Origin: Clostridiales bacterium
GTDB lineage: Bacteria > Bacillota > Clostridia > Lachnospirales > Lachnospiraceae
Reading direction: 5' to 3'
Assembly (NCBI GenBank): GCA_021204085.1
Contig: JAJPZY010000135.1
Coordinates: 4,851-68,850, forward strand
Length of the DNA stretch: 64,000 nt
The notes under the pieces were generated by a model. The model was given only the letters and a program-made list of their open reading frames with translations, had not been told where the DNA came from and did not search any database. The translations under genes and the position numbers were made by a program. Each line of letters opens with the position of its first letter. Position 1 is the stretch's first letter. Below are positions 15,306 through 30,631 of the stretch, piece by piece.

Positions 15306-15517
15306 TTTTTTGTATCATAGGAAAGACCTTGCTTTTGTAAATTGGTAAAGTGCGTGATTTCCTATGATATAAAAACACTCTGTGAGGATGCGCAGCAGCT
15401 GTGCACGCTTGTTCACTAAGCTCACGATGTTCGCTAAGTGAGCCAATGCGTCGCGGATAGGAAGTTTTTGCTGCGCAACCGCTCGCGCGCGAAGTGTCGC
15501 AGGGCGACACTTTATTT
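15306..15517 (+). repeat. Palindromic intergenic repeat family A, copy 1
   Basis: Core 15371-15512 is 141/142 identical to the reverse complement of the 36.3-36.5 kb copy. Hairpins: tatcataggaaa/tttcctatgata and aagtgtcgc-agg-gcgacactt. Confidence 0.93.
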
Positions 15518-15604
15518 AAAAACATTGAATGACGGATGAGGAAGCTGTCGGTATCATATTTTAAGGCAACCGGGGCAACGCTTCGACGAACTAATCGCTA
15601 ACTG

Positions 15605-15668
15605 CGACTACGGAACTGTCACGATTTTTCTGTGTAGACAGACATGGTATTGGCGTGACAGTTCCTAT
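15605..15668 (+). repeat. Variant REP-like hairpin unit related to family B
   Basis: gactac-GGAACTGTCACG...CGTGACAGTTCC-ta, a 12-bp stem (15612-15623/15654-15665) in the same gactacGGAA...TTCCta frame as family B. Confidence 0.6.
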
Positions 15669-15804
15669 AGACACTCAGAATAGTTTTCGCGTCTAAAGTC
15701 TTAGTATACGACTTTGCTAAGCTCAATGTTCGCCGATGGCTCCATTTCGCTAAGTGCCGCATGTATAACATGAAAGCAGCCAATCAGCGTTCGTCAGTGA
15801 CAGC

Positions 15805-15912
15805 TTTGCATAAGTTCGACTACGGAAATCAGAGATTTCCTACGTTGTATAAGTTCGATCACGCAAATTTGAAATTTGCTATCTCACTTATGTCTCACTT
15901 ATCCGTTTCTTG
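15805..15912 (+). repeat. REP-like repeat family B, copy 1
   Basis: 15815-15905 is identical over 91 bp to the reverse complement of 18550-18640. It holds two tandem units, each TAAGTTCGAYYACG plus a hairpin. Confidence 0.93.
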
Positions 15913-16090
15913 GGCTTTCATGGTAACCGCTGGATTTTGTCTCAGCTAAAAGCGCCCCTATAAAGTTGCCTGAAAATAGGATACCGGCAACTTCCCATCC
16001 TGTGCCGATGGTTATGATAAACAATAAGAATAGTGCTTTGTTAAATCAATGGTTTCTTTTGTTTGAAAAAATACGTTTGGAAAATTTAAG

Positions 16091-16120
16091 TTGACAGGTT
16101 ACGTGAATACACATTATACT
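16091..16120 (+). promoter_or_regulatory. sigmaA-type promoter upstream of the hydF/nif-like/hyp cluster
   Basis: TTGACA-18 bp-TATACT. Confidence 0.7.
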
Positions 16121-16223
16121 TTGAGTAGTTAAGACATTTGCGAGAATCATTCATCTGACCATAAGGTACGGCCTGAAAGGAAAGACAAGTGATTGCAGCG
16201 ACAGGAAAGAGTTATTTATGCTG

Positions 16224-16257
16224 CCCTTGTACCCATTTTCAGGTACAAGGGTTTTTT
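16224..16257 (+). terminator. Intrinsic terminator inside the 5' leader of the hydF cluster (probable attenuator)
   Basis: cccttgtacc-cattttca-ggtacaaggg followed by TTTTTT, about 100 nt after the promoter and 300 nt before hydF. Confidence 0.8.
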
Positions 16258-16562
16258 GTAGTATATATACTTTGAATGTGGGTGGTGTGAGTGAGGAATA
16301 CAAACATGGAGACATTAAAAAGGCAGGGGATAGAATTGTTAATGTTGAGAATAATTTCTGGTTAATCGTCAGATTTTTATAAGCCGAGATTAACTAATGG
16401 ATGAACAACGAAAAAGGCAAAATGTGCCTCCCTGATCCTTGGGGATGACCTGAAAAATAAAGAAAAGTTTCCCAAAACGGGTTGCCGAAGGCAGGAACGA
16501 CCCGAGAAATGAAGAAAATTCGAAGAGAAGTAGTACAGCGCGGATAAAAGGAGGAATGAAAG

Positions 16563-17762
16563 ATGAGCCTGAACAGTACGCCTTCCGCGAACCGGATCCA
16601 CATCGGTTTTTTCGGAAGAAGAAATGCAGGAAAATCAAGTATCGTTAATGCAGTGACCGGGCAGGATCTGGCTGTGGTATCCGAGATCAGAGGGACGACC
16701 ACGGATCCGGTTTACAAGTCGATGGAACTCCTGCCCATGGGACCGGTGGTGATCATTGATACCCCGGGTTTTGACGATGAGGGAAGCCTCGGTGATCTAC
16801 GTGTAAAAAAGACCCGCCAGGTTTTAAATAAGACGGATGTAGCGGTGCTGATTGTTGACGCCTCGGAGGGAAAGCAGCCCTGCGATGAGGAATTGATCGC
16901 TTTGTTTCAGGAGAAGGAGATTCCCTATGTTGTGGCTTATAACAAGTCAGACCTTGTCACAGAGCAGCGAGAACTTTCTGAAAATGAGATCTCCGTTAGC
17001 GCGCTTTATAAGCAGGGAATTTATGAACTGAAGGAAATGATCGGGCGCTCTGTGGTGATGGAGGATGAACGGCTGAAAATTGTCGGAGATCTGATTCAGC
17101 CGGACGATTTTGTGGTACTGGTGGTGCCGATTGACTCGGCGGCTCCGAAAGGGCGGCTGATTCTTCCGCAGCAGCAGACCATCCGGGACGTCTTGGAGGC
17201 GGACGCCACGGCTCTTGTTGTGAAAGAGAACGGTCTGGCTGAGACTCTGAAAAACATGGGACAAAAGCCGGCGATGGTGATCACGGACAGTCAGGCTTTT
17301 GAGCAGGTGGCGACTACGGTGCCGGAGGATATTCTTCTGACCTCTTTCTCTATTCTGATGGCGAGATATAAAGGCTTTCTGGATGCGGCGGTAGAAGGCG
17401 TCCGGGCGCTGGACACACTGGAGGATGGCGATACGGTGCTGATTTCCGAGGGATGCACGCATCACAGGCAGTGCGACGATATCGGTACGGTGAAGCTTCC
17501 ACGTTGGATCAGGCAGTATACGGGCAAAGATATTCGCTTTGCGACGAGCTCCGGTACGGGGTTTCCGGATGATTTGTCCGGATATAAGATGGTGATTCAT
17601 TGCGGCGGGTGCATGCTCAATGAGCGGGAAGTAAAATACCGCATGAAATGTTCTCTGGATCAGGGCGTGCCGTTTACCAATTACGGGGTGACGATCGCGT
17701 ATCTGAAGGGAATATTGAAGCGGAGCGTGCAGGTGTTTCCTTATTTATATGAGAGATTATGA
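16563..17762 (+). CDS. hydF: [FeFe]-hydrogenase H-cluster maturation GTPase HydF
   Basis: [13 protein letters not shown] and NKSD GTPase motifs; GRLILPQ; Fe-S motif EGCTHH...HCGGCM; TNYG. Confidence 0.93.
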
Positions 17763-18505
17763 AGAAAATAGCAGTTTACGGAAAAGGCGGAATCGGAAAA
17801 TCTACGATTGTATCGAATATGGCGGCTGCACTGGCGCAGCAGGGATATCGTGTCATGCAGATCGGCTGTGACCCGAAAGCAGATTCTACAATTGCCCTGC
17901 GTCACGGGACGCCGCTTCCCACAGTGTTGGATACGTTTCGTCAGAAAAAAGATACTTTTACGTCGGAGGATATTGTAAGAATCGGATTTGCAGGCGTTGT
18001 CTGTATCGAAGCAGGCGGACCGGTACCCGGTGTTGGCTGCGCGGGACGGGGAATTATCACGGCGCTGGAGAAGGTTGAAGCGAAGGGAATTTATGATATT
18101 TATCAGCCGGATATCGTTTTCTACGATGTTCTGGGTGATGTGGTCTGCGGCGGATTTTCCATGCCGATGCGCAGCGGTTATGCGGACGAAGTCTATATCG
18201 TTTCCTCCGGTGAGAATATGTCCATTTATGCTGCGGCAAATATTGCGGCGGCGATCCGGAATTTTAAGGGGCGCGGCTATGCGAAGCTCGGCGGCGTGAT
18301 CTTAAACCGACGGAATGTAAAGCGGGAGAAGGAAAAGGTCGAGGAGCTTTGCCGGGATTTTGAGACCGGGATTGTCGGTGACATTGCGTTCTCGGAGCTG
18401 GTACAGGAGGCAGAGGAGCGGAAAGTAACTTTGCTGGAAGCATATCCGGAGAGTGACATCTCACTACAATTTCAACGTCTGGCCAGAACAATTGCGGATG
18501 CGTGA
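17759..18505 (+). CDS. Nitrogenase iron protein (NifH/BchL/CfbC family)-like ATPase 1
   Basis: [19 protein letters not shown], and cluster Cys in GCAGRG and DVVCGGF. At 248 aa it is shorter than canonical NifH. ATGA overlap with hydF. Confidence 0.92.
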
Positions 18506-18541
18506 AGGGAGCAAGCCTATATTTTTACTTATTTTGAGAAT

Positions 18542-18650
18542 CCAAGCAGCGGATAAGTGAGACATAAGTGAGATAGCAAATTTCAAATTTGCGTGATCGA
18601 ACTTATACAACGTAGGAAATCTCTGATTTCCGTAGTCGAATTTATGTAAA
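18542..18650 (-). repeat. REP-like repeat family B, copy 2 (inverted relative to copy 1)
   Basis: 91-bp identity to the reverse complement of 15815-15905. Confidence 0.93.
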
Positions 18651-18850
18651 ACTTCCACAGGTGAACGTCGAGCTTAGCAGAGTTGTTTCGTGTTTATATC
18701 GTTTGATATGAGAATGAAAACCCGAATCTGCGGTTTGGAAAAATCGGTGAACATGTATGGATATGAAATGTCTGAATGAAAGGATATGTCAGACTGACAT
18801 GTGAAGTAAATAAAGTAAAATATGGAAGTGTATAATAAGGCAGATATTGA

Positions 18851-20188
18851 ATGTTGCAGCGTTTAGAACATGATCAAAAGATAAATAATTTGAATACTGA
18901 AAATGTCTGTGTCCCGATTTCCGACGCGCACTTTCCTGCGCCGTTTCACGCGGGGCTGGAATACAGTTCTCCGGCGCGCGGCACCTGGAATATCGTCCAC
19001 ACGGGGATAATGATTCCGGAGTCGCACCAGATCTTTGTCTGTGCGCTGGGCTGCCTGCGGGGCGTGGTTCTGACAGCGGCGGAGATGAACGCGCTGGGCC
19101 GTTATTCTTCGATTCAGATTCGGGAGGAGAATGTTCTGGACGGCGGGATGGAAGATCTGATGATTGAGGGCGTCACGGACATCATTCAAAAGCTGGATGT
19201 CCGGCCGAAAGCGATTTTGCTTTTTATCAGCTGTCAGCATTTTTTCCTGGCGTATGATCAGAAAATTGTCTTTTCCGTCCTCCGCGAGCGCTTTCCGGAT
19301 ATTTATTTTACTGACTGTTACATGATTCCGACGCTTCGCAAGAGCGGCCTGACACCGGATCAGAAGATGCGGATTCAGATGTACAGCATGTTGGAACAAC
19401 GCCCGAAAAACAGAAAAAAGGTGAATCTGATCGGCAGCAATCTGGAGACGGCACATACTTCAGAACTGCGGCGGATGGTGGAAAACGCCGGGTATGAATT
19501 CTGGGATTTATACCGATGTCAGGACTTTAAGGACTACTTATCTATGGCAGAGGCGTCCTTAAACCTTGTCTATGAGCCGATCGCGTTGATGGCGGCGGAG
19601 GATTTGAAAAAGCGGCTGGGGCAGGAGTATCTTTATCTCACTTTCACCTATGATTTTGAAGAATTAGAGGAAAATTATCGGAAGCTGGCGGATGCGCTCG
19701 GGATTGAGAAGCCTGATTTTTCAACAGAGAAACACCGGGCGGAATTTGCGATTGCTCATGCAAAAGAGCTGATTGGGGACATGCCCATCGCGGTTGATTA
19801 TACGTTTACTTTCCGTATCTTAAGTTTTGCAAGGATGCTTTTAGAACAGGGCTTTCATATAACTGAGATTTACGCGGATTCGTTTTTGCCGGAGGATGAA
19901 GAAAATTTCAGGTGGATACAGGAGCAGTATCCTGATGTTCTGATCTCGGCTACGAATCAGCCGGTGATGCGGTTCGTGCATGGGGAGCATAGAATCCTCG
20001 CGATCGGCCAGAAAGCGGCATATTTTTCAGGAACGGATCATTTTGTAAATGTGGCGGAGAGCGGCGGCTTTTACGGATACGACGGGATTGTTCAGATTAT
20101 GAATCTGATGGAGGATGCGTTTTTCCGTAAAAAAGACAGAAAAACCATCATCCAGCGGAAAGGGTACGGGTGCGAGAGCTGCTTATGA
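18851..20188 (+). CDS. Nitrogenase component-1-like oxidoreductase, alpha-type subunit of pair 1
   Basis: Follows the nifH-like gene; VCALGC and FISC Cys sites; C-terminal GFYGYDG similar to NifD/NifE; terminal CESC. Confidence 0.8.
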   Translation: MLQRLEHDQKINNLNTENVCVPISDAHFPAPFHAGLEYSSPARGTWNIVHTGIMIPESHQIFVCALGCLRGVVLTAAEMNALGRYSSIQIREENVLDGGMEDLMIEGVTDIIQKLDVRPKAILLFISCQHFFLAYDQKIVFSVLRERFPDIYFTDCYMIPTLRKSGLTPDQKMRIQMYSMLEQRPKNRKKVNLIGSNLETAHTSELRRMVENAGYEFWDLYRCQDFKDYLSMAEASLNLVYEPIALMAAEDLKKRLGQEYLYLTFTYDFEELEENYRKLADALGIEKPDFSTEKHRAEFAIAHAKELIGDMPIAVDYTFTFRILSFARMLLEQGFHITEIYADSFLPEDEENFRWIQEQYPDVLISATNQPVMRFVHGEHRILAIGQKAAYFSGTDHFVNVAESGGFYGYDGIVQIMNLMEDAFFRKKDRKTIIQRKGYGCESCL

Positions 20189-21633
20189 GACAGGTGACGG
20201 GACTGACTTCTACATATTCATCGGATGAATTCGGCATCTGTTCCGCACTTTATGAGCTGGGCGGAATGGTCGTCATGCATGACGCTTCCGGATGTAATTC
20301 GACCTACACGACGCATGACGAACCGCGGTGGTATGACATGGACAGCATGATTTTCATTTCCGCAATCTCAGAGATGGAAGCCATCATGGGCGACGATGAC
20401 AAGTTTATCGAAGATCTGGTGGAGACGGCCGAAGAGCTGCAGCCGAAGTTTATCGCTCTTGTAGGGGCGCCGATTCCCTATATGATCGGTACGGATTTGG
20501 AGGCGATCGCGGCGATTGTCAGCGAGCGGGTGCAGATTCCCTGCTTTGCGTTTGCGGCGAATGGGATGCACGATTATACGCGCGGCGTGTCCATGGCGCT
20601 GGAGCGGATTGTAAGGGAATACGCTACTGAAGCTGTTTATTCAGGAAGACAGAAAGGTTCATTGGAGACAGAGAACCATGCCGGAAAGCTTGACAGAACG
20701 GAAACAAACATATATCCGGGAAAGAGTGAAACGGGAACGCCGGTATTCCGGGATGAACAGCAGCGGGTGCAGAGTTCTCCTGCATCGAACCGAGAGGATG
20801 TCCGGAAACAGTGTATGGCAGCTCCGATAACCGTCAACATCCTTGGCGCGACGCCCCTGGATTTTTCTTTAAACGGCAGTGTCGATTCCATACAAAAGTG
20901 GATTTCCAACCAGAAAATGCGAATGGGCTCCTGCCTTTCCATAGGATGTACGCTGGATAATATTCGGGAAATGGGAAATGCCGATGTCAATCTTGTGATC
21001 TCAGCCGGAGGTCTTGCAGCTGCAGAAATTTTGCGGGAGCGCTTCGGAACGCCTTATGTAGTGGGAGTTCCGTTTGGCGAGAAATTTTCGGAATATCTGG
21101 CGGAGATTGTACGGGAAGCGGCGAGTTCACAGAAAAACCGTATTTCCTATATGTTAAAAATATCGTGTAAAAACAGAGCAATGTCGCAATCCGATAAAAA
21201 AGCAGAAATATATTCTTGTGATGTCGGTGGAAATAAAACGCAGTTAAAACCTGCAGATGCAATCGGGAACAGCAATGTGTCTTCGAATTCTGATGTGGCA
21301 GGGGAGAGCGGGAAACGCATGCGTTGCGTTATCATCGGCGAGAGTGTATTTTCCGCATCTTTGGCCGCCGCGATTGAGATGGAGCGCAGGGTAAATGTGA
21401 AAGTACTTTGCCCACTGGAAAATGGAGCTGATTTGCTTCGTCCGGGTGATCTTGCCACGCCGGAGGAAGATGATCTGATTCGGGAGATAAAATCAGCAGA
21501 CGCGGTCATTGCGGATCCTCTGTATCAATCACTGGCTCGAGCGAAGCAGTTTTATCCGCTGCCTCATGAGGCATTTTCCGGGAGAATCTATGACAGTGTG
21601 AATCCGAATCTCATTGCGGTTCCGCTAAAGTGA
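20185..21633 (+). CDS. Nitrogenase component-1-like oxidoreductase, beta-type subunit of pair 1
   Basis: SDEFG, HDASGC, DEPRW, VNILGATPLD and IADPLY; ATGA overlap with the upstream gene; paralog of 23859-25016. Confidence 0.8.
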   Translation: MRQVTGLTSTYSSDEFGICSALYELGGMVVMHDASGCNSTYTTHDEPRWYDMDSMIFISAISEMEAIMGDDDKFIEDLVETAEELQPKFIALVGAPIPYMIGTDLEAIAAIVSERVQIPCFAFAANGMHDYTRGVSMALERIVREYATEAVYSGRQKGSLETENHAGKLDRTETNIYPGKSETGTPVFRDEQQRVQSSPASNREDVRKQCMAAPITVNILGATPLDFSLNGSVDSIQKWISNQKMRMGSCLSIGCTLDNIREMGNADVNLVISAGGLAAAEILRERFGTPYVVGVPFGEKFSEYLAEIVREAASSQKNRISYMLKISCKNRAMSQSDKKAEIYSCDVGGNKTQLKPADAIGNSNVSSNSDVAGESGKRMRCVIIGESVFSASLAAAIEMERRVNVKVLCPLENGADLLRPGDLATPEEDDLIREIKSADAVIADPLYQSLARAKQFYPLPHEAFSGRIYDSVNPNLIAVPLK

Positions 21634-21788
21634 GGGGCGTCATATTTAGTGATTTGAGATAAAGCCTTGCTGGGATGGGAAATAACCCACCAAAACAGAA
21701 GAATTGTGAAAATAGTGGGCAGCCGGGACAAAAAGCACCCCACCTAACCAGCAGAATTGTAATGTAGAGGGAAAGGAAATATAAATTT

Positions 21789-22547
21789 ATGTTAAAGCTT
21801 GCAATATATGGAAAAGGCGGGATCGGAAAGTCTACGACTACCGCGAATCTGGCAGCGGCCTTTGCCCTGCTTGGGAAAAAGGTCATTCAGATCGGCTGTG
21901 ATCCGAAAGCGGATTCGACCATCAATCTGCTGGGCGGGCATCCGATGCTGCCGGTGATGAATTATATCCGTGATCACGATGAGGAGCCGGAGCAGCTGGC
22001 GGAGATCGCGAAAGAGGGTTACGGCGGAGTCCTTTGCATTGAGACCGGAGGTCCGACACCGGGGTTGGGCTGTGCCGGCCGCGGCATTATTACGACATTC
22101 AGCCTGCTTGAAGATCTGGAACTTTTTGAGACCTATCAGCCGGATGTGGTTCTCTATGATGTGCTGGGAGATGTGGTCTGCGGAGGATTTGCCGCTCCGA
22201 TTCGCGAGGGTTACGCGGAGCATATACTGATCGTGACGTCCGGGGAAAAAATGGCGCTCTATGCAGCCAATAATATTCAGACGGCAGTTAAAAATTTTGA
22301 GGACAGAGGGTATGCCTCGGTAAAAGGGATTATTCTGAACCGGAGAAATGTGGAAAACGAATATGAAAAGGTATCCGCTTTTGCCGTAGAACATGGGTTG
22401 GACATCATTGCGGATATTCCCAGGAGCGCAGATATCATTCGCTATGAGGACATGGGAATGACGGTAATTGAGGGCGACCCGGATCTTCCAATCAGCCGGA
22501 TTTATCTGGAACTGGCGAAAAAACTGCTTTCGGAAGACCTTATATAA
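21789..22547 (+). CDS. Nitrogenase iron protein (NifH family)-like ATPase 2
   Basis: [25 protein letters not shown] and DVVCGGF; 252 aa. Confidence 0.92.
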
Positions 22548-22566
22548 ATATAAAAGGAATAAAAAC

Positions 22567-23850
22567 ATGCAGCAGAATGCGTACTATATTACAGCGGCAG
22601 AGTTGGCCGCAAAAGGAAAAGAAAATATTCCGGATGAACTGCAGTCTTCAAAACACCTGATCTACAGTTCGCCGGCTACACTGGCATTTCATTCGCCCGG
22701 AGCGCAGGGATTCGGTGTGAAACGAGCGGGTCTGGCTATCCCCGGTTCCGTGATGCTTCTGGTCTCCCCGGCCTGCTGCGGGAGAAATACGATGATGCTG
22801 GATCAGATTGGCGGATACGGGGATCGTTTTTTCTATCTGCTTCAGGATGACACGGATATCGTGACCGGACGCCATCTGAACCGGATTTCAAAGGCGGTGA
22901 AAGAAGTTGCGGATTCTCTGGATGAGAAACCCACAGCGGTGATGATCTGTATCACCTGCGTGGATGCGCTGCTGGGCACGGATATGGAGCGGGTCTGCCG
23001 GAAAGCGTCGGAGTACGCGGGCGTTCCGGTTTTGCCCTGTTATATGTATGCGCTGACCCGGGAGGGGCGTGTGCCGCCGATGACATCTGTGAGAAAGACG
23101 GTATATGCGCTTCTTGAAAAACGGGAGAGGAAAAAAACAGCGGTAAATCTTCTGGGCGAATTTGCTCCCTATGACGACGGCTGTGAGATTTATGAGATTT
23201 TAAATAATCTGGGGTTAAAGACGATTCGTGAAATTTCCCGGTGCCGGGACTTTGAAGAATACCTTTCCATGTCGGAGGCGAATTTTAATATTATTCTGAA
23301 CCCGGAGAGCCGCCTGGCTGCAGAGGATTTCCACAAGCGGTTGGGAATCCCCTCGCTTGAAATGACGCGGGTGTACCAGATTGACAAGATTCAAAAACAG
23401 TATGAACTTCTTGGAACCGCCCTCGGTGTAAAAATCGATGACTCCGCATACTATGAGGAAGCTATGCGGACGGTGGAAGAGTTTTCACAGGCTCATCCGC
23501 AGACTGTATTTGCCGTGGGAGAGTGGATGAACGGAGACCCCTTTGAACTGTCTCTGGCATTGCTACGATACGGACATCAGGTTGCGGAGATATACGGCAC
23601 AGTGACGAACCTGAACTTTATCTACATAAAAAAAATTGCTGCGCTCAGCCCGGAAACCAGAATATATACGAATCTCTCGCCGACTATGATGAACTACAAC
23701 TGCGGGGAAGGCGCGCCTGATATTACCATCGGGCAGGATGCCGCCTACTATCATCCCGATTGCCCGAACGTGCCCTGGAATGCGGAGAATAAACCGTTTG
23801 GATACGCGGGTCTACGGAATTTGGTTCATAGTATTTGTAGTATAATATAG
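22567..23850 (+). CDS. Nitrogenase component-1-like oxidoreductase, alpha-type subunit of pair 2
   Basis: SPACCGR, CITCVDALLGTD, VNLLG and PFGYAG; start moved to the ATG after the AAGGA RBS. Confidence 0.8.
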   Translation: MQQNAYYITAAELAAKGKENIPDELQSSKHLIYSSPATLAFHSPGAQGFGVKRAGLAIPGSVMLLVSPACCGRNTMMLDQIGGYGDRFFYLLQDDTDIVTGRHLNRISKAVKEVADSLDEKPTAVMICITCVDALLGTDMERVCRKASEYAGVPVLPCYMYALTREGRVPPMTSVRKTVYALLEKRERKKTAVNLLGEFAPYDDGCEIYEILNNLGLKTIREISRCRDFEEYLSMSEANFNIILNPESRLAAEDFHKRLGIPSLEMTRVYQIDKIQKQYELLGTALGVKIDDSAYYEEAMRTVEEFSQAHPQTVFAVGEWMNGDPFELSLALLRYGHQVAEIYGTVTNLNFIYIKKIAALSPETRIYTNLSPTMMNYNCGEGAPDITIGQDAAYYHPDCPNVPWNAENKPFGYAGLRNLVHSICSII

Positions 23851-23858
23851 GAGAAATT

Positions 23859-25016
23859 ATGAAAGGCCTTTTAAAATATCTGTCCCCCTTTGCCCCGGAT
23901 CAGTCGGGCGCAGTTTCCGTTTTATATGATCTGGGCGGCATGATCGTCATCTGCGACGCCGGCGGCTGCACCGGTAATTTCTGCGGATTTGACGAGCCGC
24001 GGTGGTTTGAAAAAAAGAGCGCGATTTTTTCCGCGGGCCTGCGGGATATGGACGCCATTCTGGGAAGGGATGACCGTCTGGTAGAAAAGCTGAAGGACGC
24101 GGCTGATCATCTGGATGCGAAATTTATTGCGCTTATCGGCACGCCGGTTCCGGCTGTAATTGCGACGGATTTTAAAGCATTGAAGCGAATGACAGAGAAG
24201 AAAACCGGATTGCCGGTGATTGTCAGCGAGTGCACCGGAACCCGCCTCTATGACAAAGGTGCGGAGGATGCGTACCTGTCACTTTTTCAGACTTTTGCAA
24301 AGCGGGATGTCAGAAAAAATGAACAGACTGTCGGTGTCATTGGAGTGAATCCGCTGGACACCAGTTATTCGGATGCAGCGCAGATTTTGGAGAGCGTGTT
24401 TCTGGACGAAGGATATGAGAATATCCTCTGTTACGGCGCAGAACATAAGCTTGAAAGCAGTGAAACGAATTTCAGCATGAAGAAGTCGGGAAATTGTATG
24501 CAGTTCAGCGATTCTTCGCCTGACGGGAAGAAACCTGCGGATAGCCTTGCAGTGATCGAACAGGCAGGAACCGCCGCAAAAAACATTGTTCTTGCACCAT
24601 CCGGAATCCGGGCGGCAAAATATCTGCAGGAAACTTTCGGCACTCCCTATGAAACGGCATATCCGCTGTTATCTGTAAAATTAAAAGAACGGCTGCACGG
24701 GCTCGCGGGAAAACGTGTGCTTGTCGTCCATCAACAGGTTGCGGCGAATGAGATTCGAAAAGAAATTGCAGGCGATGATGACCTGAATTTTTCAAAGATT
24801 GTCTGCGGCACATGGTTTATGCAGGTTCCGGAGCAGACCGCACAGCAGGATGTGCATTTTGAAAGGGAAGAAACATTTATTTCATACGTGGAACAAGGAA
24901 ATTTTGATGCGATTGTCGCGGACGGAAGGTTTCGCAGGGCGCTGCGCGGTTACAGGGGTGAGTTTGTGGAGTGCCCGCATTTTGCGGTTTCCGGGACGAT
25001 GGATTGTGAGTTATAG
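23859..25016 (+). CDS. Nitrogenase component-1-like oxidoreductase, beta-type subunit of pair 2
   Basis: PDQSG, CDAGGCTGNFC, DEPRW, GTPVPAVIATD and PHFAVSG. Confidence 0.8.
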   Translation: MKGLLKYLSPFAPDQSGAVSVLYDLGGMIVICDAGGCTGNFCGFDEPRWFEKKSAIFSAGLRDMDAILGRDDRLVEKLKDAADHLDAKFIALIGTPVPAVIATDFKALKRMTEKKTGLPVIVSECTGTRLYDKGAEDAYLSLFQTFAKRDVRKNEQTVGVIGVNPLDTSYSDAAQILESVFLDEGYENILCYGAEHKLESSETNFSMKKSGNCMQFSDSSPDGKKPADSLAVIEQAGTAAKNIVLAPSGIRAAKYLQETFGTPYETAYPLLSVKLKERLHGLAGKRVLVVHQQVAANEIRKEIAGDDDLNFSKIVCGTWFMQVPEQTAQQDVHFEREETFISYVEQGNFDAIVADGRFRRALRGYRGEFVECPHFAVSGTMDCEL

Positions 25017-25019
25017 AAG

Positions 25020-25178
25020 TTTTTTTTATATCATAGGAAAGACCTTGTTGTTGTAAAGTATTAAAGTATGCGATTTCCTATGATATAAAAACACTCCGTG
25101 AGGATGCGCAGCTCGCGGATAGGAGGTTTTGCTGCGCAACCGCTCGCGCGCGAAGTGTCGCAGAGCGACACTTTATTT
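25020..25178 (+). repeat. Palindromic repeat family A, copy 2 (lacks a 54-bp internal module)
   Basis: Same left hairpin, aaaaacactc..gaggatgcgcagc core and aagtgtcgc hairpin as copy 1; lacks the equivalent of 15397-15450. Confidence 0.9.
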
Positions 25179-25212
25179 TATGAGTAAGCCGAGATTGTAT
25201 AGGGACAGCAGT

Positions 25213-27690
25213 ATGAATACAGGAGAGAATCAGAAAAATAATTGCATAACGAAGCATATTCGTGTCTATGGTATCGTTCAGGGCGTTGGTTTTCGCCCGT
25301 TTGTGAGCCGGATTGCGGATCGGATCGGTGTGAGAGGGAGCGTAGCGAACAAAGGCTCCTATGTGGAAATATTTTCTGCCGGCACAGGAGAGCAGCAGGA
25401 GGAATTTTTACAGGCGTTGGAGCGGGAAGCTCCGGAGCGCTCTGCCATTTTAAAGGTGGATGTTTCTGATATTGAGAATCTTGCTTTTGATACCTTTGAT
25501 ATCATAGAGAGTGAGCGGGAAGAGGGAGATATCTTTGTCTCGCCGGATATCGCTACCTGTCCGAAATGCAGGCAGGAACTTTATGATCCGACGAACCGCC
25601 GGTATATGCACCCTTTTATTAATTGTACGGCCTGCGGGCCGCGGCTGACGATCTTGGACGCCATGCCCTATGACCGTGAACGGACCAGTATGAAGGACTT
25701 CCCCATGTGTCTGGAGTGTGAGTTTGAGTACACGCACGCGGAGACCAGGCGCTACGACGCCCAGCCTGTCTGTTGTAATGATTGCGGGCCGCAGGTGTAC
25801 CTGCTGGAACGAACTTCTCAGGCAGAGGAAAAAAATGTATGTTGCGGGAGGGAAGCCATCAGCAAGGCGCGAAAAGCAATCGCGGACGGAAAGATCGTAG
25901 CCATTAAAGGCATCGGCGGCTTTCATCTTTGCTGCGACGCCGCCAATGAATCAGCAGTGCGCCGCCTGCGGGAATTAAAGCATCGCCCCGCAAAGCCGTT
26001 TGCGGTGATGATGAAGGATTTGGAGACCGTATATGCGCAGTGTGAAGTGTCAGAAGTACAGAAGGAGATCCTGGACGGTCACGCGAAGCCGATCATTCTT
26101 TTAAAAAAGAAAGTTGGAAACCATCTGGCGGACGCGGTGGCGCCGGATAATCCGAATGTCGGAGTGATGCTGCCGTACGCCCCGGTACAAATGCTGTTGT
26201 TTGACTACAATGATGGTTTCGAGATGCCCACAGATACCTTTGTTATGACCAGCGGCAATGTGTCAGGCGCGCCGATTTGCCGGACAGATGAGGATGCGCT
26301 GCGGGAAATCAGCGGCTTCTGTGATCTGATTTTATCCCACGACCGAAAAATTCGCCTGCGTGCCGATGATTCGGTGATGAATTTTTATAAAGACGAGCCG
26401 TATATGATCCGGCGCTCCAGAGGATACGCGCCGCTCCCGGTCATGATGGATTTCCCGTGGCGCGGGCAGGTGCTGGCCGTCGGCGGCGAATTGAAGAATA
26501 CATTCTGCATCGCCAAAAATCAGCTGTTTTATTCCTCTCCCTATGTGGGGGATATGGCGGATGTCCGTACCGTTCAGGCGCTGACGGAATCGATTACGCG
26601 GATGGAGGAACTGCTGGAGGCAAAGCCGCAGCTGGCAGTCTGTGACCTGCATCCGAAATATAATACAACGGTTGTTGCCGAGAATACAGGACTCCCGTTG
26701 TTGAAAATCCAGCATCACTACGCGCACATTCTTTCCTGTATGGCGGAAAACAATCTGCCGCCTGATACAAAAGTGATCGGAGTTTCCTTTGACGGTACCG
26801 GCTATGGCACCGACGGAACGATCTGGGGCGGGGAATTTCTTGTGGCGGATTACTTCGGTTTTGAGCGGGCCGGCAGCATTCGGCCGTTTCTCCAGATCGG
26901 CGGCGATTCTTCCGCACGTGAGGGTTGGAGGATTGCGGTTTCTATGGTAAATTCGTTGTATCCGGACCGCGCAGCTGAGGTTGCGGAAGCGCTCGGTTTG
27001 TGCGATGAAAAGACACGGAAGCTCTATCAGCAGATGGCAGCGCGGCGAATCAATGCCGTGGAGTCGACCAGCGCAGGCCGCCTGTTCGATGCAGTCAGTG
27101 CAATCCTCGGCATCCGATTGGAATCCTCTTTTGAGGGAGAAGCGTCAACTACGCTGCAGTTCAGGGCGGAGGAGTATCTTGAGAGGAGAGGAAAGGTAAA
27201 AGAGGACATATGTGTTGCAGACGAATGTGACACGGAGAATTGTACCGGGAAGGAAGAAGTAGTTTTAAAAGAAGAAAAAGAATCTGGAAATGTCAGAAAC
27301 ACCTGCGGACTTCAACTAACAGGAGTAGCAGAAAGCACTTCGGACCGCCGGCTTCTTCTTCCAACTGATGAACTGGTGCGGTTTATCATTAATGAGAGAC
27401 TGGCCGGGCAGGATGCCTGCAAACTGGCGTATATTTTCCATCAGACTCTCGCGGAACAGATTATCGCCGGATGCAGAGTGATTTCGGAGGAGACCGGTAT
27501 TACATTCTGCGCCTTAAGCGGCGGCGTGTTTCAGAACCAGCTTTTGCTGGAACTTTGTGAAAAGGGCTTGACTGAAGCCGGATTTACCGTTTATCGTCAC
27601 CGCATGATACCGCCGAATGACGGCGGGCTGGCACTCGGCCAGGCGGCGGCCGGCATGGCATACCTGAATAATACGCTACAAGAAATATAA
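25213..27690 (+). CDS. hypF: Carbamoyltransferase HypF
   Basis: Acylphosphatase domain GIVQGVGFRPF, two CxxC-x18-CxxC zinc fingers, HHYAH, DGTGYGTDG and PPNDGG. The longer N-terminus in the ORF track comes from repeat A. Confidence 0.96.
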   Translation: MNTGENQKNNCITKHIRVYGIVQGVGFRPFVSRIADRIGVRGSVANKGSYVEIFSAGTGEQQEEFLQALEREAPERSAILKVDVSDIENLAFDTFDIIESEREEGDIFVSPDIATCPKCRQELYDPTNRRYMHPFINCTACGPRLTILDAMPYDRERTSMKDFPMCLECEFEYTHAETRRYDAQPVCCNDCGPQVYLLERTSQAEEKNVCCGREAISKARKAIADGKIVAIKGIGGFHLCCDAANESAVRRLRELKHRPAKPFAVMMKDLETVYAQCEVSEVQKEILDGHAKPIILLKKKVGNHLADAVAPDNPNVGVMLPYAPVQMLLFDYNDGFEMPTDTFVMTSGNVSGAPICRTDEDALREISGFCDLILSHDRKIRLRADDSVMNFYKDEPYMIRRSRGYAPLPVMMDFPWRGQVLAVGGELKNTFCIAKNQLFYSSPYVGDMADVRTVQALTESITRMEELLEAKPQLAVCDLHPKYNTTVVAENTGLPLLKIQHHYAHILSCMAENNLPPDTKVIGVSFDGTGYGTDGTIWGGEFLVADYFGFERAGSIRPFLQIGGDSSAREGWRIAVSMVNSLYPDRAAEVAEALGLCDEKTRKLYQQMAARRINAVESTSAGRLFDAVSAILGIRLESSFEGEASTTLQFRAEEYLERRGKVKEDICVADECDTENCTGKEEVVLKEEKESGNVRNTCGLQLTGVAESTSDRRLLLPTDELVRFIINERLAGQDACKLAYIFHQTLAEQIIAGCRVISEETGITFCALSGGVFQNQLLLELCEKGLTEAGFTVYRHRMIPPNDGGLALGQAAAGMAYLNNTLQEI

Positions 27691-27709
27691 AGCAGAGGAG
27701 GATATATAC

Positions 27710-27916
27710 ATGTGTGTAGGATTATCAGCAAAAGTAGTAGGAATTAAAGACGGCATGGCTTTGGTGGACGCGATGGGTGCGAAGCGTGAGGTTTCCGCAG
27801 AACTTTTGGATGAGCTGGAGCCGGGAGATTATGTCATGGTACATGCGGGTGTCGCGATCGCGAAGATCAATGGCGATGATGATGCCGAGGCAGATGACGT
27901 CATCGGTTTGCTGTAA
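27710..27916 (+). CDS. hypC: HypC/HupF chaperone
   Basis: Cys2 in MCVGLSAKV and GDYVMVHAGVA; 68 aa. Confidence 0.93.
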   Translation: MCVGLSAKVVGIKDGMALVDAMGAKREVSAELLDELEPGDYVMVHAGVAIAKINGDDDAEADDVIGLL

Positions 27917-27931
27917 AGAAGGAGAATTAAA

Positions 27932-28978
27932 ATGGACGACGCAATCAAAAAAGCGCGTGGGATTATTGAAAATTATGACGGGCCGAAGCTTCGGATCATG
28001 GAAGTCTGCGGCACGCATACACATGAAATTTTCCGTCTTGGAATACGGAATATCCTGCCGGATAATATTGAACTGATTTCCGGGCCGGGATGTCCGGTCT
28101 GCGTGACGCCGGTCGGTTATATCGACGAGGCGGTGATGCTGGCTTTGGAAAAAGGCTGCACAGTCTGTACATTCGGAGATCTGATCCGTGTGCCGGGAAC
28201 GAAGATGAGTCTGGCGGGAGCCCGCGCGGAAGGCGCGGATGTTAAGATCGTATATGCGCCGCAGGATGCGGTAACTGTTGCAAAAGAAAATCCGGACAAA
28301 CAGGTGGTGTTTCTGGCAGTAGGTTTTGAGACGACTACGCCGTCCGCCTGTCTTGCCGTAAAAAAAGCAAGGGAGCAGGGACTTGATAATTTTTCAATCC
28401 TGACAGCGAACAAGACCATGCCGAATGCGTATCAGGCGCTGAAAGGAAGTGCGGATGCATTCCTTTATCCGGGGCATGTCAATGCCATTACGGGCGAGGC
28501 AGACTGCCGGAAGCTGAAGGATGAGGGGGTTTCCGGAGTGATTGCCGGATTTACGGCAAAAGAGCTTTTGACGGCGCTGGCAGTTATTATAGAGAAATCA
28601 AAAACAGGAGAGCCGTTTTTTGTAAACTGTTATCCCAGAGTGGTCCGTCCTGAGGGAAATTCTGCCGGGAGGGCAATCATTGAGGAAGTGATGGAGCCCT
28701 GTGATTCTGAATGGCGGGGCTTAGGTGTGATTCCTGATTCGGGGCTTAAACTGCGGGAAGATTATCGTGAATTTGATGCGCGGTTAAAGTATAATCTTCC
28801 GGAAATCCACGGGAAGCCGAACCCGGCCTGCCGCTGCGGGGAGGTGCTTCAGGGGAAATGCCGCCCGGTGGATTGCAGTCTTTTCGGAAAAGTGTGTACG
28901 CCGCAGCATCCGGTGGGCGCATGTATGGTTTCCAATGAGGGAAGCTGCTCCGCATATTTTTCTTACGGAATCGGATGA
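27932..28978 (+). CDS. hypD: Hydrogenase maturation Fe-S scaffold HypD
   Basis: MEVCGTHT, GPGCPVC, GFETT, PGHV and the C-terminal Cys cluster ending GACMVSNEGSC. Confidence 0.96.
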   Translation: MDDAIKKARGIIENYDGPKLRIMEVCGTHTHEIFRLGIRNILPDNIELISGPGCPVCVTPVGYIDEAVMLALEKGCTVCTFGDLIRVPGTKMSLAGARAEGADVKIVYAPQDAVTVAKENPDKQVVFLAVGFETTTPSACLAVKKAREQGLDNFSILTANKTMPNAYQALKGSADAFLYPGHVNAITGEADCRKLKDEGVSGVIAGFTAKELLTALAVIIEKSKTGEPFFVNCYPRVVRPEGNSAGRAIIEEVMEPCDSEWRGLGVIPDSGLKLREDYREFDARLKYNLPEIHGKPNPACRCGEVLQGKCRPVDCSLFGKVCTPQHPVGACMVSNEGSCSAYFSYGIG

Positions 28979-29123
28979 TTGGATTATATTGAAGATACAA
29001 TTAAATGGATGAGTCAGGCCTGTTTTTTCGAAAATATGACTGCAGGTTTATATTTACGGATGGAGGACTTTCTATTGATAGATTTGGTAATCGGCAAATA
29101 GATGAATCGGGAAGGAAGAAAAA

Positions 29124-30134
29124 ATGAGTGATAGTAAAAAAGTAACCCTCGCCCACGGCGCGGGAGGAAAGCAGACGGCGGAATTGATCCGGGAGGTGTT
29201 CGCGGCGCATTTTTCAAATCCGCAATTTACGGCGGATGACGCGGCGGTGCTGGATGTGGGAAGTGGAAAAATTGCCATGTCTACAGACGGATTTATCGTG
29301 TCTCCCTATAAATTTAACGGAGGAAATATCGGAAAACTTTCCATTTGCGGGACAGTAAATGATTTGTCCTGCATGGGGGCGCGGCCGCTGTATCTGACCT
29401 GCTCCTTTATCATAGAGGAAGGATTTCCGCTTGATGAGCTGGAGCAGATCGCGGCATCCATGGAAAAAACAGCAATGGAGGCCGGTGTAAAGATCGTAGC
29501 CGGAGATACAAAAGTAGCCGGAGCCGGACAGGTGGATCATATTTTTATTACAACGACCGGAATCGGCGCATTGACGGAAGGTGTTTCAACCTCCGGAGCT
29601 TATGCGAGACCGGGGGATGCAATCCTTGTGACAGGCGATATCGGCCGGCACGGCTGCACCATTTTGCTTGCAAGAGAAGATCTGGGAATTGAAGCGGATA
29701 TTAAAAGCGATTGTGCCCCGCTCTGGGGAACCGTAGAGTTGATGATTGATGAAACAAAGGATATTCATGTGATTCGCGACGCAACGAGGGGCGGTGTGGG
29801 GACGGTTCTCTACGAAATTGCGGCGGAGAGCAATGTCGGCGTTCGGCTCGATGGCGCGGCAATCCCGGTTGATCCGGCAGTTCGCGGTGTCTGCGGAATG
29901 CTGGGACTTGATCCGCTCTATCTCGCGAATGAAGGAACCCTGGTCGTGATCGCACCCAGACCGGAGGCAGAGCGGTTGCTCACGGTTTTAAAGGATGGAA
30001 AATATTCGGCAAATGCTGCGATCATCGGTGAGATTACCGACAAGCTGCCGGGAAAAGTGGTTATGACTACGGAGATCGGGGCTGAAACTATGCTGCCGCA
30101 GCCGGGCGGGGAACTGTTGCCGAGGATATGTTAA
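29124..30134 (+). CDS. hypE: Carbamoyl dehydratase HypE
   Basis: LAHGAGGK, GTVNDL, DATRGG and the C-terminal PRIC. Confidence 0.96.
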   Translation: MSDSKKVTLAHGAGGKQTAELIREVFAAHFSNPQFTADDAAVLDVGSGKIAMSTDGFIVSPYKFNGGNIGKLSICGTVNDLSCMGARPLYLTCSFIIEEGFPLDELEQIAASMEKTAMEAGVKIVAGDTKVAGAGQVDHIFITTTGIGALTEGVSTSGAYARPGDAILVTGDIGRHGCTILLAREDLGIEADIKSDCAPLWGTVELMIDETKDIHVIRDATRGGVGTVLYEIAAESNVGVRLDGAAIPVDPAVRGVCGMLGLDPLYLANEGTLVVIAPRPEAERLLTVLKDGKYSANAAIIGEITDKLPGKVVMTTEIGAETMLPQPGGELLPRIC

Positions 30135-30258
30135 TTCAGATACAGATGAATCCTGTGGAGGACTGTGAATCGTAACATTCTGAATTTCTGTAAAATTCCC
30201 TATTTTCTTTTCCGTAAAACCTGTATATAATAATGCTCAGACAGGAGGTAGAAATCAT

Positions 30259-30618
30259 ATGAAAGGACAGATACAAAACGCGTTGGGTACAGTCAGCATA
30301 GATTCGCAGGTAGTTGCTTCCTGTGCCGGTTCCGCAGCGGTGGAGTGTTTCGGCATCGTGGGCATGGCAGCAGTAAATATGAAAGACGGACTTGTGAAGC
30401 TGCTGAAAAAAGATTATCTGCATCATGGGATTACGGTGCAGATTGAGGAGGATGACAAGATCACACTGGATTTTCATGTAATTGTCTCCTACGGCGTGAG
30501 CATTGCTGCCGTTTCAGATAACCTGATGAATACGGTGAAGTATAAAGTGGAAGAGTTTACCGGGCTCACAGTCGATAAAATCAACATCTTTGTGGAAGGT
30601 GTCAGAGTAATTGACTAA
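30259..30618 (+). CDS. Asp23/Gls24-family protein (YloU-like)
   Basis: AVECFGIVGMA and VDKINIFVEGVRV; upstream of the DAK2 gene. Confidence 0.88.
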   Translation: MKGQIQNALGTVSIDSQVVASCAGSAAVECFGIVGMAAVNMKDGLVKLLKKDYLHHGITVQIEEDDKITLDFHVIVSYGVSIAAVSDNLMNTVKYKVEEFTGLTVDKINIFVEGVRVID

Positions 30619-30631
30619 GGAGGACAGACCG

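Follow-up and report, generated by a model that had tools for sequence, protein, structure and literature searches.

A conserved module of nitrogenase-like and Hyp genes as a probable substitute for HydG in [FeFe]-hydrogenase maturation

Organization of the operon and its leader

The window, that is, the whole stretch of 64,000 nucleotides that was analysed, holds an array of eleven co-directional genes on the forward strand (16563-30134), in the order hydF, H1, D1, K1, H2, D2, K2, hypF, hypC, hypD, and hypE. This order and orientation, already given by the original prediction, agree with the coordinates, the profile matches, and the strand of every gene. The ATGA overlaps it described are found at 17759-17762 (hydF/H1) and 20185-20188 (D1/K1), and a motif check of HydF, both NifH-like proteins, HypC, HypD, HypE, and HypF bears out its statement that the key motifs are intact.

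The first gene, hydF (16563-17762), encodes the [FeFe]-hydrogenase H-cluster maturation GTPase and scaffold. Its product matches TIGR03918 with 570 bits (cut-off 326), contains the HydF_dimer and HydF_tetramer domains, and keeps the P-loop, CxH, and HCxxC motifs. It is followed by two sets of nitrogenase-like genes, each comprising a NifH-like ATPase/reductase and a pair of component-1-like subunits of the PF00148 family. The reductase of set 1, H1 (17759-18505; PF00142, 293 bits), reaches the cut-offs of neither the NifH nor the CfbC model, and its cluster ligands Cys94 and Cys130 are invariant in 69/69 homologues. That of set 2, H2 (21789-22547; PF00142, 295 bits), has the full motif set in 91 of 92 homologues. 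Two sequence motifs, one of 13 and one of 11 letters, are intact in both proteins.

The alpha-type subunit D1 (18851-20188) has conserved residues at C64, C68, C128, C156, C223, C441, C444, H50, and H130, and its beta-type partner K1 (20185-21633) at C19, C37, C409, H32, H44, and H461; in three related loci (L082, L087, and L096) the two are fused into a single ORF. D2 (22567-23850), the alpha-type subunit of set 2, is a paralogue of D1 (hhalign probability 100%, identity 25%) with conserved cysteines at positions 73, 74, 131, 134, 147, 161, and 229, counted from base 22558, three residues ahead of the ATG at 22567. Its partner K2 (23859-25016) conserves C32, C37, C42, C191, and H374. The AlphaFold2 model of D1 (pLDDT 82) aligns to NifEN, NifDK, and Mar chains with TM scores of 0.6-0.69, and the model of D2 (pLDDT 85) likewise adopts a component-1 fold.

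The array ends with four hyp genes. The carbamoyltransferase gene hypF (about 25213-27690) may start at ATG 25213 or 25180, within an ORF open from 25129; the protein scores 751 bits with TIGR00143 (cut-off 466) and includes the acylphosphatase, two zinc-finger, YrdC, and Kae1-like domains, both zinc-finger motifs being recognizable. The Fe(CN)2CO scaffold chaperone HypC (27710-27916) exceeds the cut-offs of PF01455 and TIGR00074 (59.9 bits, cut-off 48), and its Cys2 and His45 are invariant among homologues. HypD (27932-28978), the [4Fe-4S] scaffold protein, matches TIGR00075 with 404 bits (cut-off 193) and has intact CGxHxH, GPGCPVC, and FETT motifs and C-terminal Cys cluster; the HypD motifs are intact in 76/77 homologues. 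HypE (29124-30134), the thiocyanate-forming dehydratase, matches TIGR02124 with 423.5 bits (cut-off 252) and ends in the PRIC motif, as do 72 of 73 homologues.

Upstream of the operon, the best candidate promoter is a sigma-70-like sequence on the forward strand (16091-16120; TTGACA-18-TATACT), identified by its match to 11 of 12 consensus positions. It precedes a conserved leader stem-loop (16137-16211, forward strand) with a core of ~62 nt, UCAU..AUCUGACCAUAAGG-loop-CCUGAAGGGGAAGACAAGUGA, which scores 74 bits here with a covariance model (R1), is near-invariant across 13 same-genus loci whose flanking sequence varies, and has no match in an Rfam search. Behind it, ~300 nt 5' of hydF, lies a forward-strand hairpin resembling an intrinsic terminator (16223-16262; 11-bp stem with 6 GC pairs, followed by a T-run), which is kept in most relatives and could possibly act as an attenuator. 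Two gaps of the operon are occupied by interspersed repeats. Much of the 345-nt gap between H1 and D1 consists of a 133-nt repeat (18535-18667), an inverted and 90% complementary copy of 15788-15920 with 43 BLAST matches genome-wide, and the gap between K2 and hypF is filled by a hairpin-containing copy of 15306-15517 (25022-25178) with 33 such matches.

Conservation of the module and hydrogenases of the genome

Relatives of D2 occur in at least 566 species genomes. Among the 80 best related loci, spread over Bacillota, Synergistota, Lentisphaeria, and Spirochaetota, hypFCDE accompanies both HDK sets in 80/80 wherever the contig is long enough, and such recurrence places the arrangement far beyond chance. 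Two gene orders exist, in both of which the block H2-D2-K2-hypFCDE is invariant, with set 2 directly upstream of hypF. The module is adjoined by hydF in several distinct layouts, hydF or hydE being often adjacent (hydE in 14 loci), and hydG was never seen next to it in the loci examined. The gene order is thus conserved beyond this genome, and the clustering supports the earlier idea that the three systems form one functional unit.

The original prediction described a locus with no hydrogenase, which holds for the window but not for the genome. The contig carrying the window (C77) has no match to HydA, HydE, HydG, or the [NiFe] large subunit. Elsewhere, the genome encodes HydE (579 bits) and five HydA-type [FeFe]-hydrogenase homologues, two of which are CpI-like M3 enzymes; one of these two (contig C1) contains L1-L3, taken here to be the three H-cluster motifs of HydA. 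This genome-wide verification of HydA and HydE covers the present genome only. None of the other proteins that had been proposed for a search was found in the assembly (94.7% complete, 151 contigs): HydG was not found by profile search, PF00374, the [NiFe] large subunit, has no match, and the motifs by which that subunit, HypA, and HypB are presumably recognized occur nowhere. The presence of HydE and five HydA homologues makes an ordinary H-cluster the likely client of the operon.

These data also bear on what the Hyp proteins may be doing. All four lie above curated equivalog or subfamily cut-offs and keep the catalytic motifs and every HypF domain of their [NiFe] counterparts, so that the formation of cyanide from carbamoyl phosphate is their expected chemistry. 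They might accordingly mature an unrecognized or very divergent [NiFe]-type enzyme, with the nitrogenase-like genes and hydF as unrelated neighbours, and 5 of 50 module genomes do have a weak, group-4-like match of ~360 aa to the large subunit. However, PF00374 is absent from 24/24 congeners and from 45 of those 50 genomes, hypFCDE, here in one operon with the nitrogenase-like genes, lies behind H2-D2-K2 at each locus, in both layouts and all four phyla, and position 6 of HypC, assumed here to be a canonically conserved proline, is Ser or Ala in 64/69 module homologues. With the large subunit missing here and in 69/74 other module genomes, the gene content indicates that the Hyp proteins cannot serve a [NiFe]-hydrogenase in this organism, and a divergent enzyme of this type is regarded as extremely improbable.

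Mutual exclusion of the module and HydG

HydG, a radical-SAM tyrosine lyase, is the maker of the Fe(CO)2(CN)Cys synthon of the H-cluster. No HydG above cut-off was detected in any of the 81 module genomes, comprising 25 of the same genus, 50 others that include isolates and complete chromosomes, and six more from an even class-level sample. In that sample, HydG is present in 238 of 251 HydF-positive genomes lacking the module (Fisher's exact p = 5.6e-9, not corrected for phylogeny). HydF, on the other hand, is encoded by 60 of the 61 module genomes tested (49/50, 4/4, and 7/7), compared with 65% of the class.

The swap can be observed inside a single genus, g91, in which two species (G430 and G248) have hydE-hydG-hydF and four others (G380, G160, G302, and G328) have H2-D2-K2-hypFCDE-D1-K1-hydF and lack HydG, hydE being the next gene in G328. 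In the HydF tree, a clade of 26 proteins (support 98/97) is free of sequences from HydG-bearing genomes. Module genomes of three phyla account for 25 of them, and the remaining one belongs to G455, a genome 84% complete that lacks HydG and in which no D2 was found. This clade takes in the g91 module species and leaves out their HydG-bearing congeners, so that hydF moves together with the module. In other module genomes HydF is typical of its lineage, and the module therefore plugs into the standard pathway.

Many of the surveyed genomes are MAGs, and the absence of HydG could conceivably be an artefact of incomplete assemblies, as the 151 contigs of the present one may illustrate, or of insensitive HMMs. 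It could also be offset by scavenged free CO and CN; in either case the gene cluster would be unrelated to H-cluster synthesis. HydF co-expressed with HydE alone gave ~1% activation in vitro (quoted in PMC9431212). In addition, 13 of the 20 HydF-positive, HydG-negative genomes of the class sample have no detected D2 orthologue, and thus the module is not the sole way of living without HydG. In one of these 13 (G446), only hydE-H1-D1-K1-ABC transporter-hydF is found, with no hyp genes nearby, so that Hyp may not be indispensable. Nevertheless, 0/81 is incompatible with random assembly loss when 95% of comparable genomes are HydG-positive, the set holds isolates and complete chromosomes (G434 in one contig, G062, G075, G071, G077, G082, and G085), and the HydG model gives 380-950 bits in relatives and control genomes. 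Artefact or scavenging is therefore considered very unlikely.

A proposed route to the H-cluster and its relation to known systems

The reading favoured here, with moderate confidence, is that the module replaces HydG and constitutes a HydG-independent branch of H-cluster maturation. From its occurrence in bacteria that have the [FeFe] system but lack HydG, the operon probably assembles the CO/CN-iron unit that goes into the [FeFe] active site, via an undescribed route. HypF and HypE would derive cyanide from carbamoyl phosphate and pass it on to iron held by HypC-HypD. A difficulty for this route is that the canonical Hyp product is Fe(CN)2(CO) and the substrate of HydE is Fe(CO)2(CN)(Cys), so that the ligand ratio must change at some further step. 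The two ATP-dependent nitrogenase-like systems, each formed by a NifH-like reductase and a D/K heterotetramer, could provide the very low-potential electrons, and probably the scaffold sites, on which the addition of CO and the conversion of the Hyp-type Fe-CN/CO unit would depend; the result would be what HydG otherwise produces, an Fe(CO)2(CN)-type synthon or an equivalent species. That these pairs would supply the reduction, the CO, or the scaffold is a guess. Set 2, always joined to hypFCDE, probably partners Hyp, and set 1, usually adjoining hydF or hydE, probably acts at the hand-over. The product would then pass to the retained HydE and HydF, which would complete the [2Fe] subcluster and install it in HydA enzymes whose genes lie elsewhere. 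The comparative data establish the gene content of the module, its motifs, its conservation, and its complementary distribution with HydG, and each chemical step is inferred.

Compared with canonical HydE/HydF/HydG systems, such as hydE-hydG-hydF, HydF and HydE are here bona fide equivalogs and the HydA clients are ordinary; in g91, the module sits beside hydF where the congeners have hydG. The difference lies in the ten genes of two other metallocofactor systems that stand in place of hydG. The earlier proposal that Hyp supplies a substitute for the HydG synthon, with HydF acting downstream, agrees with the finding that module genomes strictly lack HydG. Its second part, in which one nitrogenase-like pair receives a new cofactor and an unknown reduction is the output, appears less likely given the probable H-cluster client.

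Under that second possibility, a new CN/CO-ligated iron cofactor would go to one of the D/K proteins, itself a novel reductase or an enzyme akin to hydrogenases; the other pair would act as scaffold in the manner of NifEN, and HydF, alone or together with HydE, as carrier. HydG would then have been lost secondarily, for instance if one CO/CN pool also matured HydA. The two paralogous HDK sets recall NifEN and NifDK, D1, D2, K1, and K2 have many family-specific invariant Cys and His residues besides the interface-cluster ligands, the proteins are distant from all characterized nitrogenase-like families, and G446 retains set 1 with hydE and hydF in the absence of hyp. By itself, however, a new cofactor leaves unexplained both the missing HydG and the position of the module at the site of hydG in congeners, and a module without HydF is almost never found. 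D2 lacks the Cys/His ligands of FeMo-co and the L-cluster, with an Asn aligned to NifE C250 (equivalent to NifD C275), and no genes that would point to a substrate, such as those of transporters or of sulfur or carbon enzymes, accompany the module in the window. A cofactor destined for the module's own proteins is thus rather doubtful.

Among known systems, Nif offers a plausible logic of scaffolding and hand-over; the analogy of the two pairs to NifEN and NifDK, drawn in the original prediction, is pure inference. As in Nif, there are two paralogous heteromers with one NifH-like ATPase each, and the D2 family profile matches NifE best (E = 3e-14). In contrast, module proteins score far under the Nif equivalog cut-offs (NifE 69 bits, against 505), have two of the three alpha-side interface cysteines, and share 11-19% identity with solved structures. 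The combination of an ATP-dependent NifH-like reductase and a PF00148 component is also that of other nitrogenase-like (NFL) systems (CfbCD, DPOR/COR, Mar, Isr, Nfa, and group VI NflD), but no curated model of these families is passed, and the genetic context is one of hydrogenase maturases instead of tetrapyrrole or sulfur genes. Neither Hyp nor HydF nor the maturation of hydrogenases comes up in a 2026 review of NFL proteins (PMC13474568).

The only prior mention of the gene association is one speculative sentence of Dos Santos et al. in 2012, on NifHEN-like pairs encoded beside genes for hydrogenase maturation (PMC3464626), which makes no link to the absence of HydG and gives no distribution or mechanism. 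These pairs appear to be the same module: they involve two linked NifHEN-like copies with two conserved cysteines in the D/E-like subunit and maturation genes as neighbours. The cysteine set of the K/N-like subunit is reduced in both descriptions, to one in that report and to two (K1) and three (K2) conserved N-terminal cysteines here. In addition, several acetogenic Clostridium have been reported to encode HydE, HydF, and HypCDEF and to lack recognizable HydG or HypAB (PMC9431212), a gene content that, together with the 2012 observation, fits the replacement of HydG by the module.

Gene content and genomic setting

The eleven co-directional genes that the original prediction had placed in one cluster are recovered by ORF listing and HMM scans (16563-30134), with H1 and H2 encoding nifH-like ATPases and D1/K1 and D2/K2 encoding alpha/beta-type pairs resembling nitrogenase component 1. 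As had been noted, the ATGA overlaps at hydF/H1 and D1/K1 are both real and the catalytic motifs of the cluster proteins are intact. HydF scores 570 bits with TIGR03918 (cut-off 326) and holds GTPase, dimerisation and tetramerisation domains, together with the P-loop GRRNAGKS and the [4Fe-4S] motif CxH...HCxxC (C298-x-H300, H346-C-x-x-C350). H1 and H2 match PF00142 with about 294 bits each and fall under both the NifH and the CfbC equivalog cut-offs, while the proteins of the two operon pairs, D1/K1 and D2/K2, are all four over the Pfam cut-off for PF00148. HypF, HypC, HypD and HypE pass all their NCBIfam cut-offs and keep their catalytic motifs. The flanking genes are unrelated to the operon: a GH2 beta-galactosidase (lacZ) lies upstream, and fakA, recG and housekeeping genes lie downstream.

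Two gaps within the cluster, H1-D1 (345 nt) and K2-hypF (196 nt), measure 9-100 nt in relatives. They were considered as operon breaks, a reading ruled out by the genome-wide interspersed repeats inside them; the gaps are therefore regarded as insertions and not as ancestral operon breaks. One repeat of about 160-210 nt (15306-15517, 25022-25178, and 36331-36357 on the minus strand; 33 BLAST matches across the contigs of the genome) terminates in the hairpin GAAGTGTCGCAGRGCGACACTT, and one of its copies occupies the K2-hypF gap. One copy of a second repeat, of 133 nt (15788-15920 and, inverted, 18535-18667; 90% complementary, 43 BLAST matches genome-wide), takes up a good part of the H1-D1 gap.

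In the maturation of [FeFe]-hydrogenases, HydG converts tyrosine into the Fe(CO)2(CN)Cys synthon, from which HydE and HydF produce the [2Fe] subcluster, and HydG is regarded as one of the three indispensable maturases. HypE and HypF make cyanide from carbamoyl phosphate and HypC and HypD assemble Fe(CN)2CO. Systems composed of NifH-like and DK components, in turn, deliver ATP-coupled low-potential electrons.

The original prediction had pointed to the rest of the genome (2.93-Mb assembly, 94.7% complete, with the window on contig C77) as the place to look for a [NiFe] large subunit, hypAB, hydA, hydE and hydG. Both hydA and hydE are present, and none of the others was found. The description of the cluster as lacking a hydrogenase holds for the window, but not for the genome, which encodes five homologues of the [FeFe]-hydrogenase HydA. 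Two of them belong to the CpI-like M3 type, one has no domains but ferredoxin-type ones ahead of the H-domain, and one carries a PAS domain, as in sensory hydrogenases; the HydA on contig C1 contains all three motifs expected for the H-cluster. HydE is encoded on contig C132 (579 bits).

The [NiFe] large subunit gave no match to PF00374 in this genome, where the RxCGxC motif is also absent, and a six-frame search of the same genome found neither HypB nor HypA with the motifs presumed for them (ENVGNLVCP-type and MHE...CxxC...CxxC, respectively). No protein of this genome exceeds the HydG cut-off of TIGR03955 (312 bits). The best match, a candidate on contig C45 with 182.6 bits, is ThiH and sits inside a thiF-thiG-thiH-thiE operon. 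The genome thus differs from the canonical HydEFG system in having HydE and HydF without HydG, and from the Hyp system of [NiFe]-hydrogenases in having no large-subunit client and no HypA/HypB recognisable by motif.

Distribution of the module and of HydG

The module, which comprises the two nitrogenase-like sets and hypFCDE, is a constant feature of the genus: D1 and D2 are found in 25 of 25 genomes, and in none of 16 other families of the order. Two layouts occur within the genus, one with the order hydF-H1-D1-K1-H2-D2-K2-hypFCDE, as in the window, and the other with H2-D2-K2-hypFCDE-H1-D1-K1 and hydF elsewhere in the genome. Beyond the genus, a pattern and tblastn scan with one genome per species detected relatives of D2 in at least 566 genomes, many of them from H2-producing gut and rumen anaerobes. 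The best 80 of these loci (at least 60% identity) come from Lachnospiraceae, Oscillospiraceae, Dorea, Anaerostipes and Clostridium lapidicellarium, and further from Synergistaceae, Lentisphaeria/Victivallales and Spirochaetaceae. Among these 80, both HDK sets and hypFCDE occur together in every locus with a long enough contig, and H2-D2-K2 is, contig permitting, always immediately upstream of hypF; the synteny expected for a functional unit is therefore conserved across genomes for the HDK sets and hypFCDE.

Around this core, hydF adjoins the module in at least four different arrangements, and hydE adjoins 14 module loci, whereas hydG adjoins none. Some loci lack H1 and keep D1-K1 (L055, L050, L057, L118, L130, L136 and L146-L149), and there the single NifH-like protein H2 may serve both D/K pairs. 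In three lineages, a single ORF of about 840 aa encodes both D1 and K1 (L082 6730-9255, L087 6671-9226 and L096 6735-9257), a fusion which supports the formation of one complex by the two proteins.

The distribution of HydG is the reverse of that of the module. HydG exceeds its cut-off in 0 of 25 genomes of the genus, versus 9 of 16 other families of the order, and in none of 50 further module genomes (0 of 56 when all other module genomes are counted). HydF is over the cut-off in 49 of those 50 and in the four congeners tested. Among 16 out-group genomes, HydF is present in eight, and all eight carry a full-length HydG. A [NiFe] large subunit (PF00374) is likewise missing from 24 of 24 congeners, and 45 of the 50 other module genomes have no match to the model. 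The remaining five show a weak match (L141-L144, from G088, G055, G090 and G051, and genome G059), in ORFs of about 360-450 aa that cover only the first 70, N-terminal, model positions; these may be group-4 (Ech-like) enzymes. The module, then, occurs where HydA, HydE and HydF exist (HydA and HydE being surveyed genome-wide in the genome of the window) and where HydG and a [NiFe] client do not.

The same relation emerges from even sampling of the class (399 scored genomes). HydF is found in 258 and HydG in 242, with 238 carrying both and 20 being positive for HydF and negative for HydG. All seven genomes with a D2 orthologue, from four genera in four families, fall among these 20 (Fisher's exact p = 5.6e-9, uncorrected for phylogeny). 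The other 13 have no D2 orthologue, and several of them are incomplete.

A natural experiment of module versus hydG is provided by a single genus, g91. Two of its species have hydE-hydG-hydF (G430, G248), and four others have H2-D2-K2-hypFCDE-D1-K1-hydF and no HydG (G380, G160, G302, G328), followed by hydE in G328; in these congeners the module occupies the place of hydG. The HydF tree (75 rows) contains a clade with 98/97 support that holds 26 HydFs, none of which is from a HydG-carrying genome. Of these, 25 belong to module genomes, namely those of the genus of the window, Spirochaetaceae, C. lapidicellarium, other Lachnospiraceae and the module species of g91, and the last is from G455, a HydG-less genome (84% complete) in which D2 was not detected. 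Those g91 congeners that carry HydG have their HydFs outside the clade, and this separation indicates that hydF often travelled with the module. Elsewhere among the module genomes (G434, Lentisphaeria, Synergistaceae), the HydF is the one typical of the lineage, from which it appears that a special HydF is not required by the module.

Two HydG-less genomes show different arrangements. In G446, which has no D2 orthologue, a shorter variant (L154 2453-11126) with set 1 only and no nearby hyp reads hydE-H1-D1-K1, a periplasmic binding protein, a FecCD permease and an ABC ATPase, that is, an iron-complex-type transporter, and then hydF. In G401, which is likewise HydF-positive and HydG-negative and belongs to the same taxonomic order, hydE-hydF has directly behind it a gene for a B12-binding radical-SAM protein containing a DUF4080 domain (L153 9300-13297); this may be an alternative substitute for HydG or a chance neighbour.

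Nitrogenase-like proteins, HypC and the proposed function

D1 is a paralogue of D2: hhalign aligns the two with 100% probability and 25% identity. Both AlphaFold2 models (pLDDT 82 for D1 and 85 for D2) adopt the component-1 fold with three Rossmann domains, and match chains of NifEN, NifDK, Mar and BchB with probability 1.0 and TM 0.6-0.69, at 11-19% identity. The best match of the D2 profile among solved structures is NifE (E = 3e-14). Both proteins conserve the Cys residues equivalent to NifE C62 and C124, the third alpha-side ligand is missing, and the position of NifE C250 (NifD C275) is Asn in D2, which is numbered here from base 22558, three codons ahead of its ATG at 22567. Two N-terminal Cys are conserved in K1 and three in K2. 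Invariant Cys common to D1 and D2 lie in a CYM motif (D1 C156, D2 C161) and an RCxDF motif (D1 C223, D2 C229), and D1 ends in an invariant CxxC. The Coprococcus/Dorea clade of Dos Santos et al. 2012 (PMC3464626) has the Cys pattern seen here, except for a single conserved K/N-like Cys.

None of the nitrogenase-like systems compared accommodates these proteins. True nitrogenase is distant in score (NifH 322 and 305 bits versus 394, NifD 27-32 versus 654) and has three alpha-Cys P-cluster ligands as well as the cofactor ligands alpha-Cys275 and alpha-His442, whereas only two alpha-type Cys align here and the C275 equivalent in D2 is the Asn. The NifEN scaffold has C37/C62/C124 as [4Fe-4S] ligands and C250 as L-cluster ligand, but D2 has Cys only at C62 and C124, and scores with NifE TIGR01283 are 52-69 bits versus 505. 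CfbCD is likewise excluded, with 316 and 296 bits versus 402 for CfbC (NF033200) and 25-39 versus 268 for CfbD (TIGR03282), the latter on the K proteins only; CfbD is, in addition, homomeric, unlike the heteromeric D/K system described here. Every score for DPOR/COR (BchL/X, BchN/B/Y/Z) is far under the cut-off. As for Mar/Isr, chain A of R. rubrum Mar is the sole solved-structure match of the D1 profile, at just E = 2.7e-5, and the sulfur-metabolism context of those systems is not seen, the neighbours being hydF, hyp, lacZ, fakA and recG.

The HypC proteins of the module (window 27710-27916 and 68 homologues) keep Cys2 and His45 and have an N-terminus of the form MCVGL(S/A)AKV. Position 6 is Ser or Ala in 64 of 69 and Pro, presumably the canonical residue in [NiFe]-linked HypC, HybG and HupF, in 5 of 69. 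The loss of Pro6 may mark a different client.

From gene content and distribution, the most economical reading, and a reasonably probable one, is that the module delivers the contribution otherwise made by HydG, with the pathways merging at HydE/HydF. The locus belongs to a widespread, uncharacterised module, which most likely replaces HydG in H-cluster biosynthesis. The original prediction had proposed that Hyp stands in for the HydG synthon, which fits the absence of HydG; the new cofactor for one nitrogenase-like pair that it also proposed, with an unknown reduction as output, is less likely, since HydA clients exist. The main rival, in which the nitrogenase-like protein would itself use a new CN/CO cofactor, is distinctly unlikely; it leaves the complementarity with HydG unexplained unless the cofactor route also feeds HydA. 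As for the division of labour in HydG replacement, the genes that stay adjacent suggest that D2K2 would work with Hyp, perhaps generating CO, and that D1K1 would act at the hand-over to HydE/HydF. A more detailed version, rather doubtful as a whole, takes both nitrogenase-like systems as ATP-driven machines of hydrogenase cofactor assembly: one, with HypCDEF, would reduce CO2 or a bound carboxylate to CO ligands on iron, and the other would prepare the Fe-CN/CO unit for HydE/HydF by reductive conversion or dimerisation, so that the H-cluster would derive from carbamoyl phosphate and CO2 and not from tyrosine.

A HydG-free route of this kind, if true, would be a third biological way to Fe-CO/CN centres, the first role of nitrogenase-like enzymes in hydrogenase maturation, and the first Hyp client besides [NiFe]-hydrogenases. 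It would give a handle on the anaerobic origin of the CO ligand, and the reduction of CO2 or carboxylate with HypCDEF, if correct, would uncover the anaerobic source of CO that has long been sought for Hyp-type chemistry. The HydG-free route would also bear on how H2 metabolism in microbiomes is predicted from genomes and on heterologous hydrogenase production. A 2022 study of acetogenic Clostridium (PMC9431212) reported HydE, HydF and HypCDEF but recognised neither HydG nor HypAB, and offered no explanation; the proposed route would account for this. A 2026 review of nitrogenase-like systems (PMC13474568) makes no mention of Hyp, HydF or hydrogenase maturation, and full-text literature searches returned no described HydG-independent or nitrogenase-like/Hyp maturation pathway.

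Transcription and the leader of hydF

Among sequencing runs, the operon of the window appears in only four low-share ones, of unclear type and in contig form. An oligo-dT RNA-seq run (X5) contains contigs 95-99% identical to a Dorea-type module (L120 7500-21284), with near-even depth from about 0.4-0.8 kb upstream of H2 through K1 and no depth in the 0.9 kb further upstream. This weakly suggests co-transcription of the Dorea-type cluster, the values being contig depths open to DNA carry-over and strain divergence.

Upstream of hydF, a strong promoter-like site (16091-16120) is followed by a stem-loop of about 62 nt and a terminator-like hairpin (16137-16262 together, with the hairpin at 16223-16252). 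An Rfam scan of 15000-31000 at E <= 1 gave no match. R1, a narrow covariance model of the stem-loop, matched only the window over 85 sources (1.5 Mb), and did not find the leader at other module layouts, at canonical hydEGF operons or at the genome's own HydA and HydE loci. By regex and BLAST, the leader is confined to hydF-first loci of the same genus. The stem-loop is near-invariant in 13 same-genus loci and, together with the strong terminator-like hairpin, resembles an attenuator or a riboswitch-like regulatory element.
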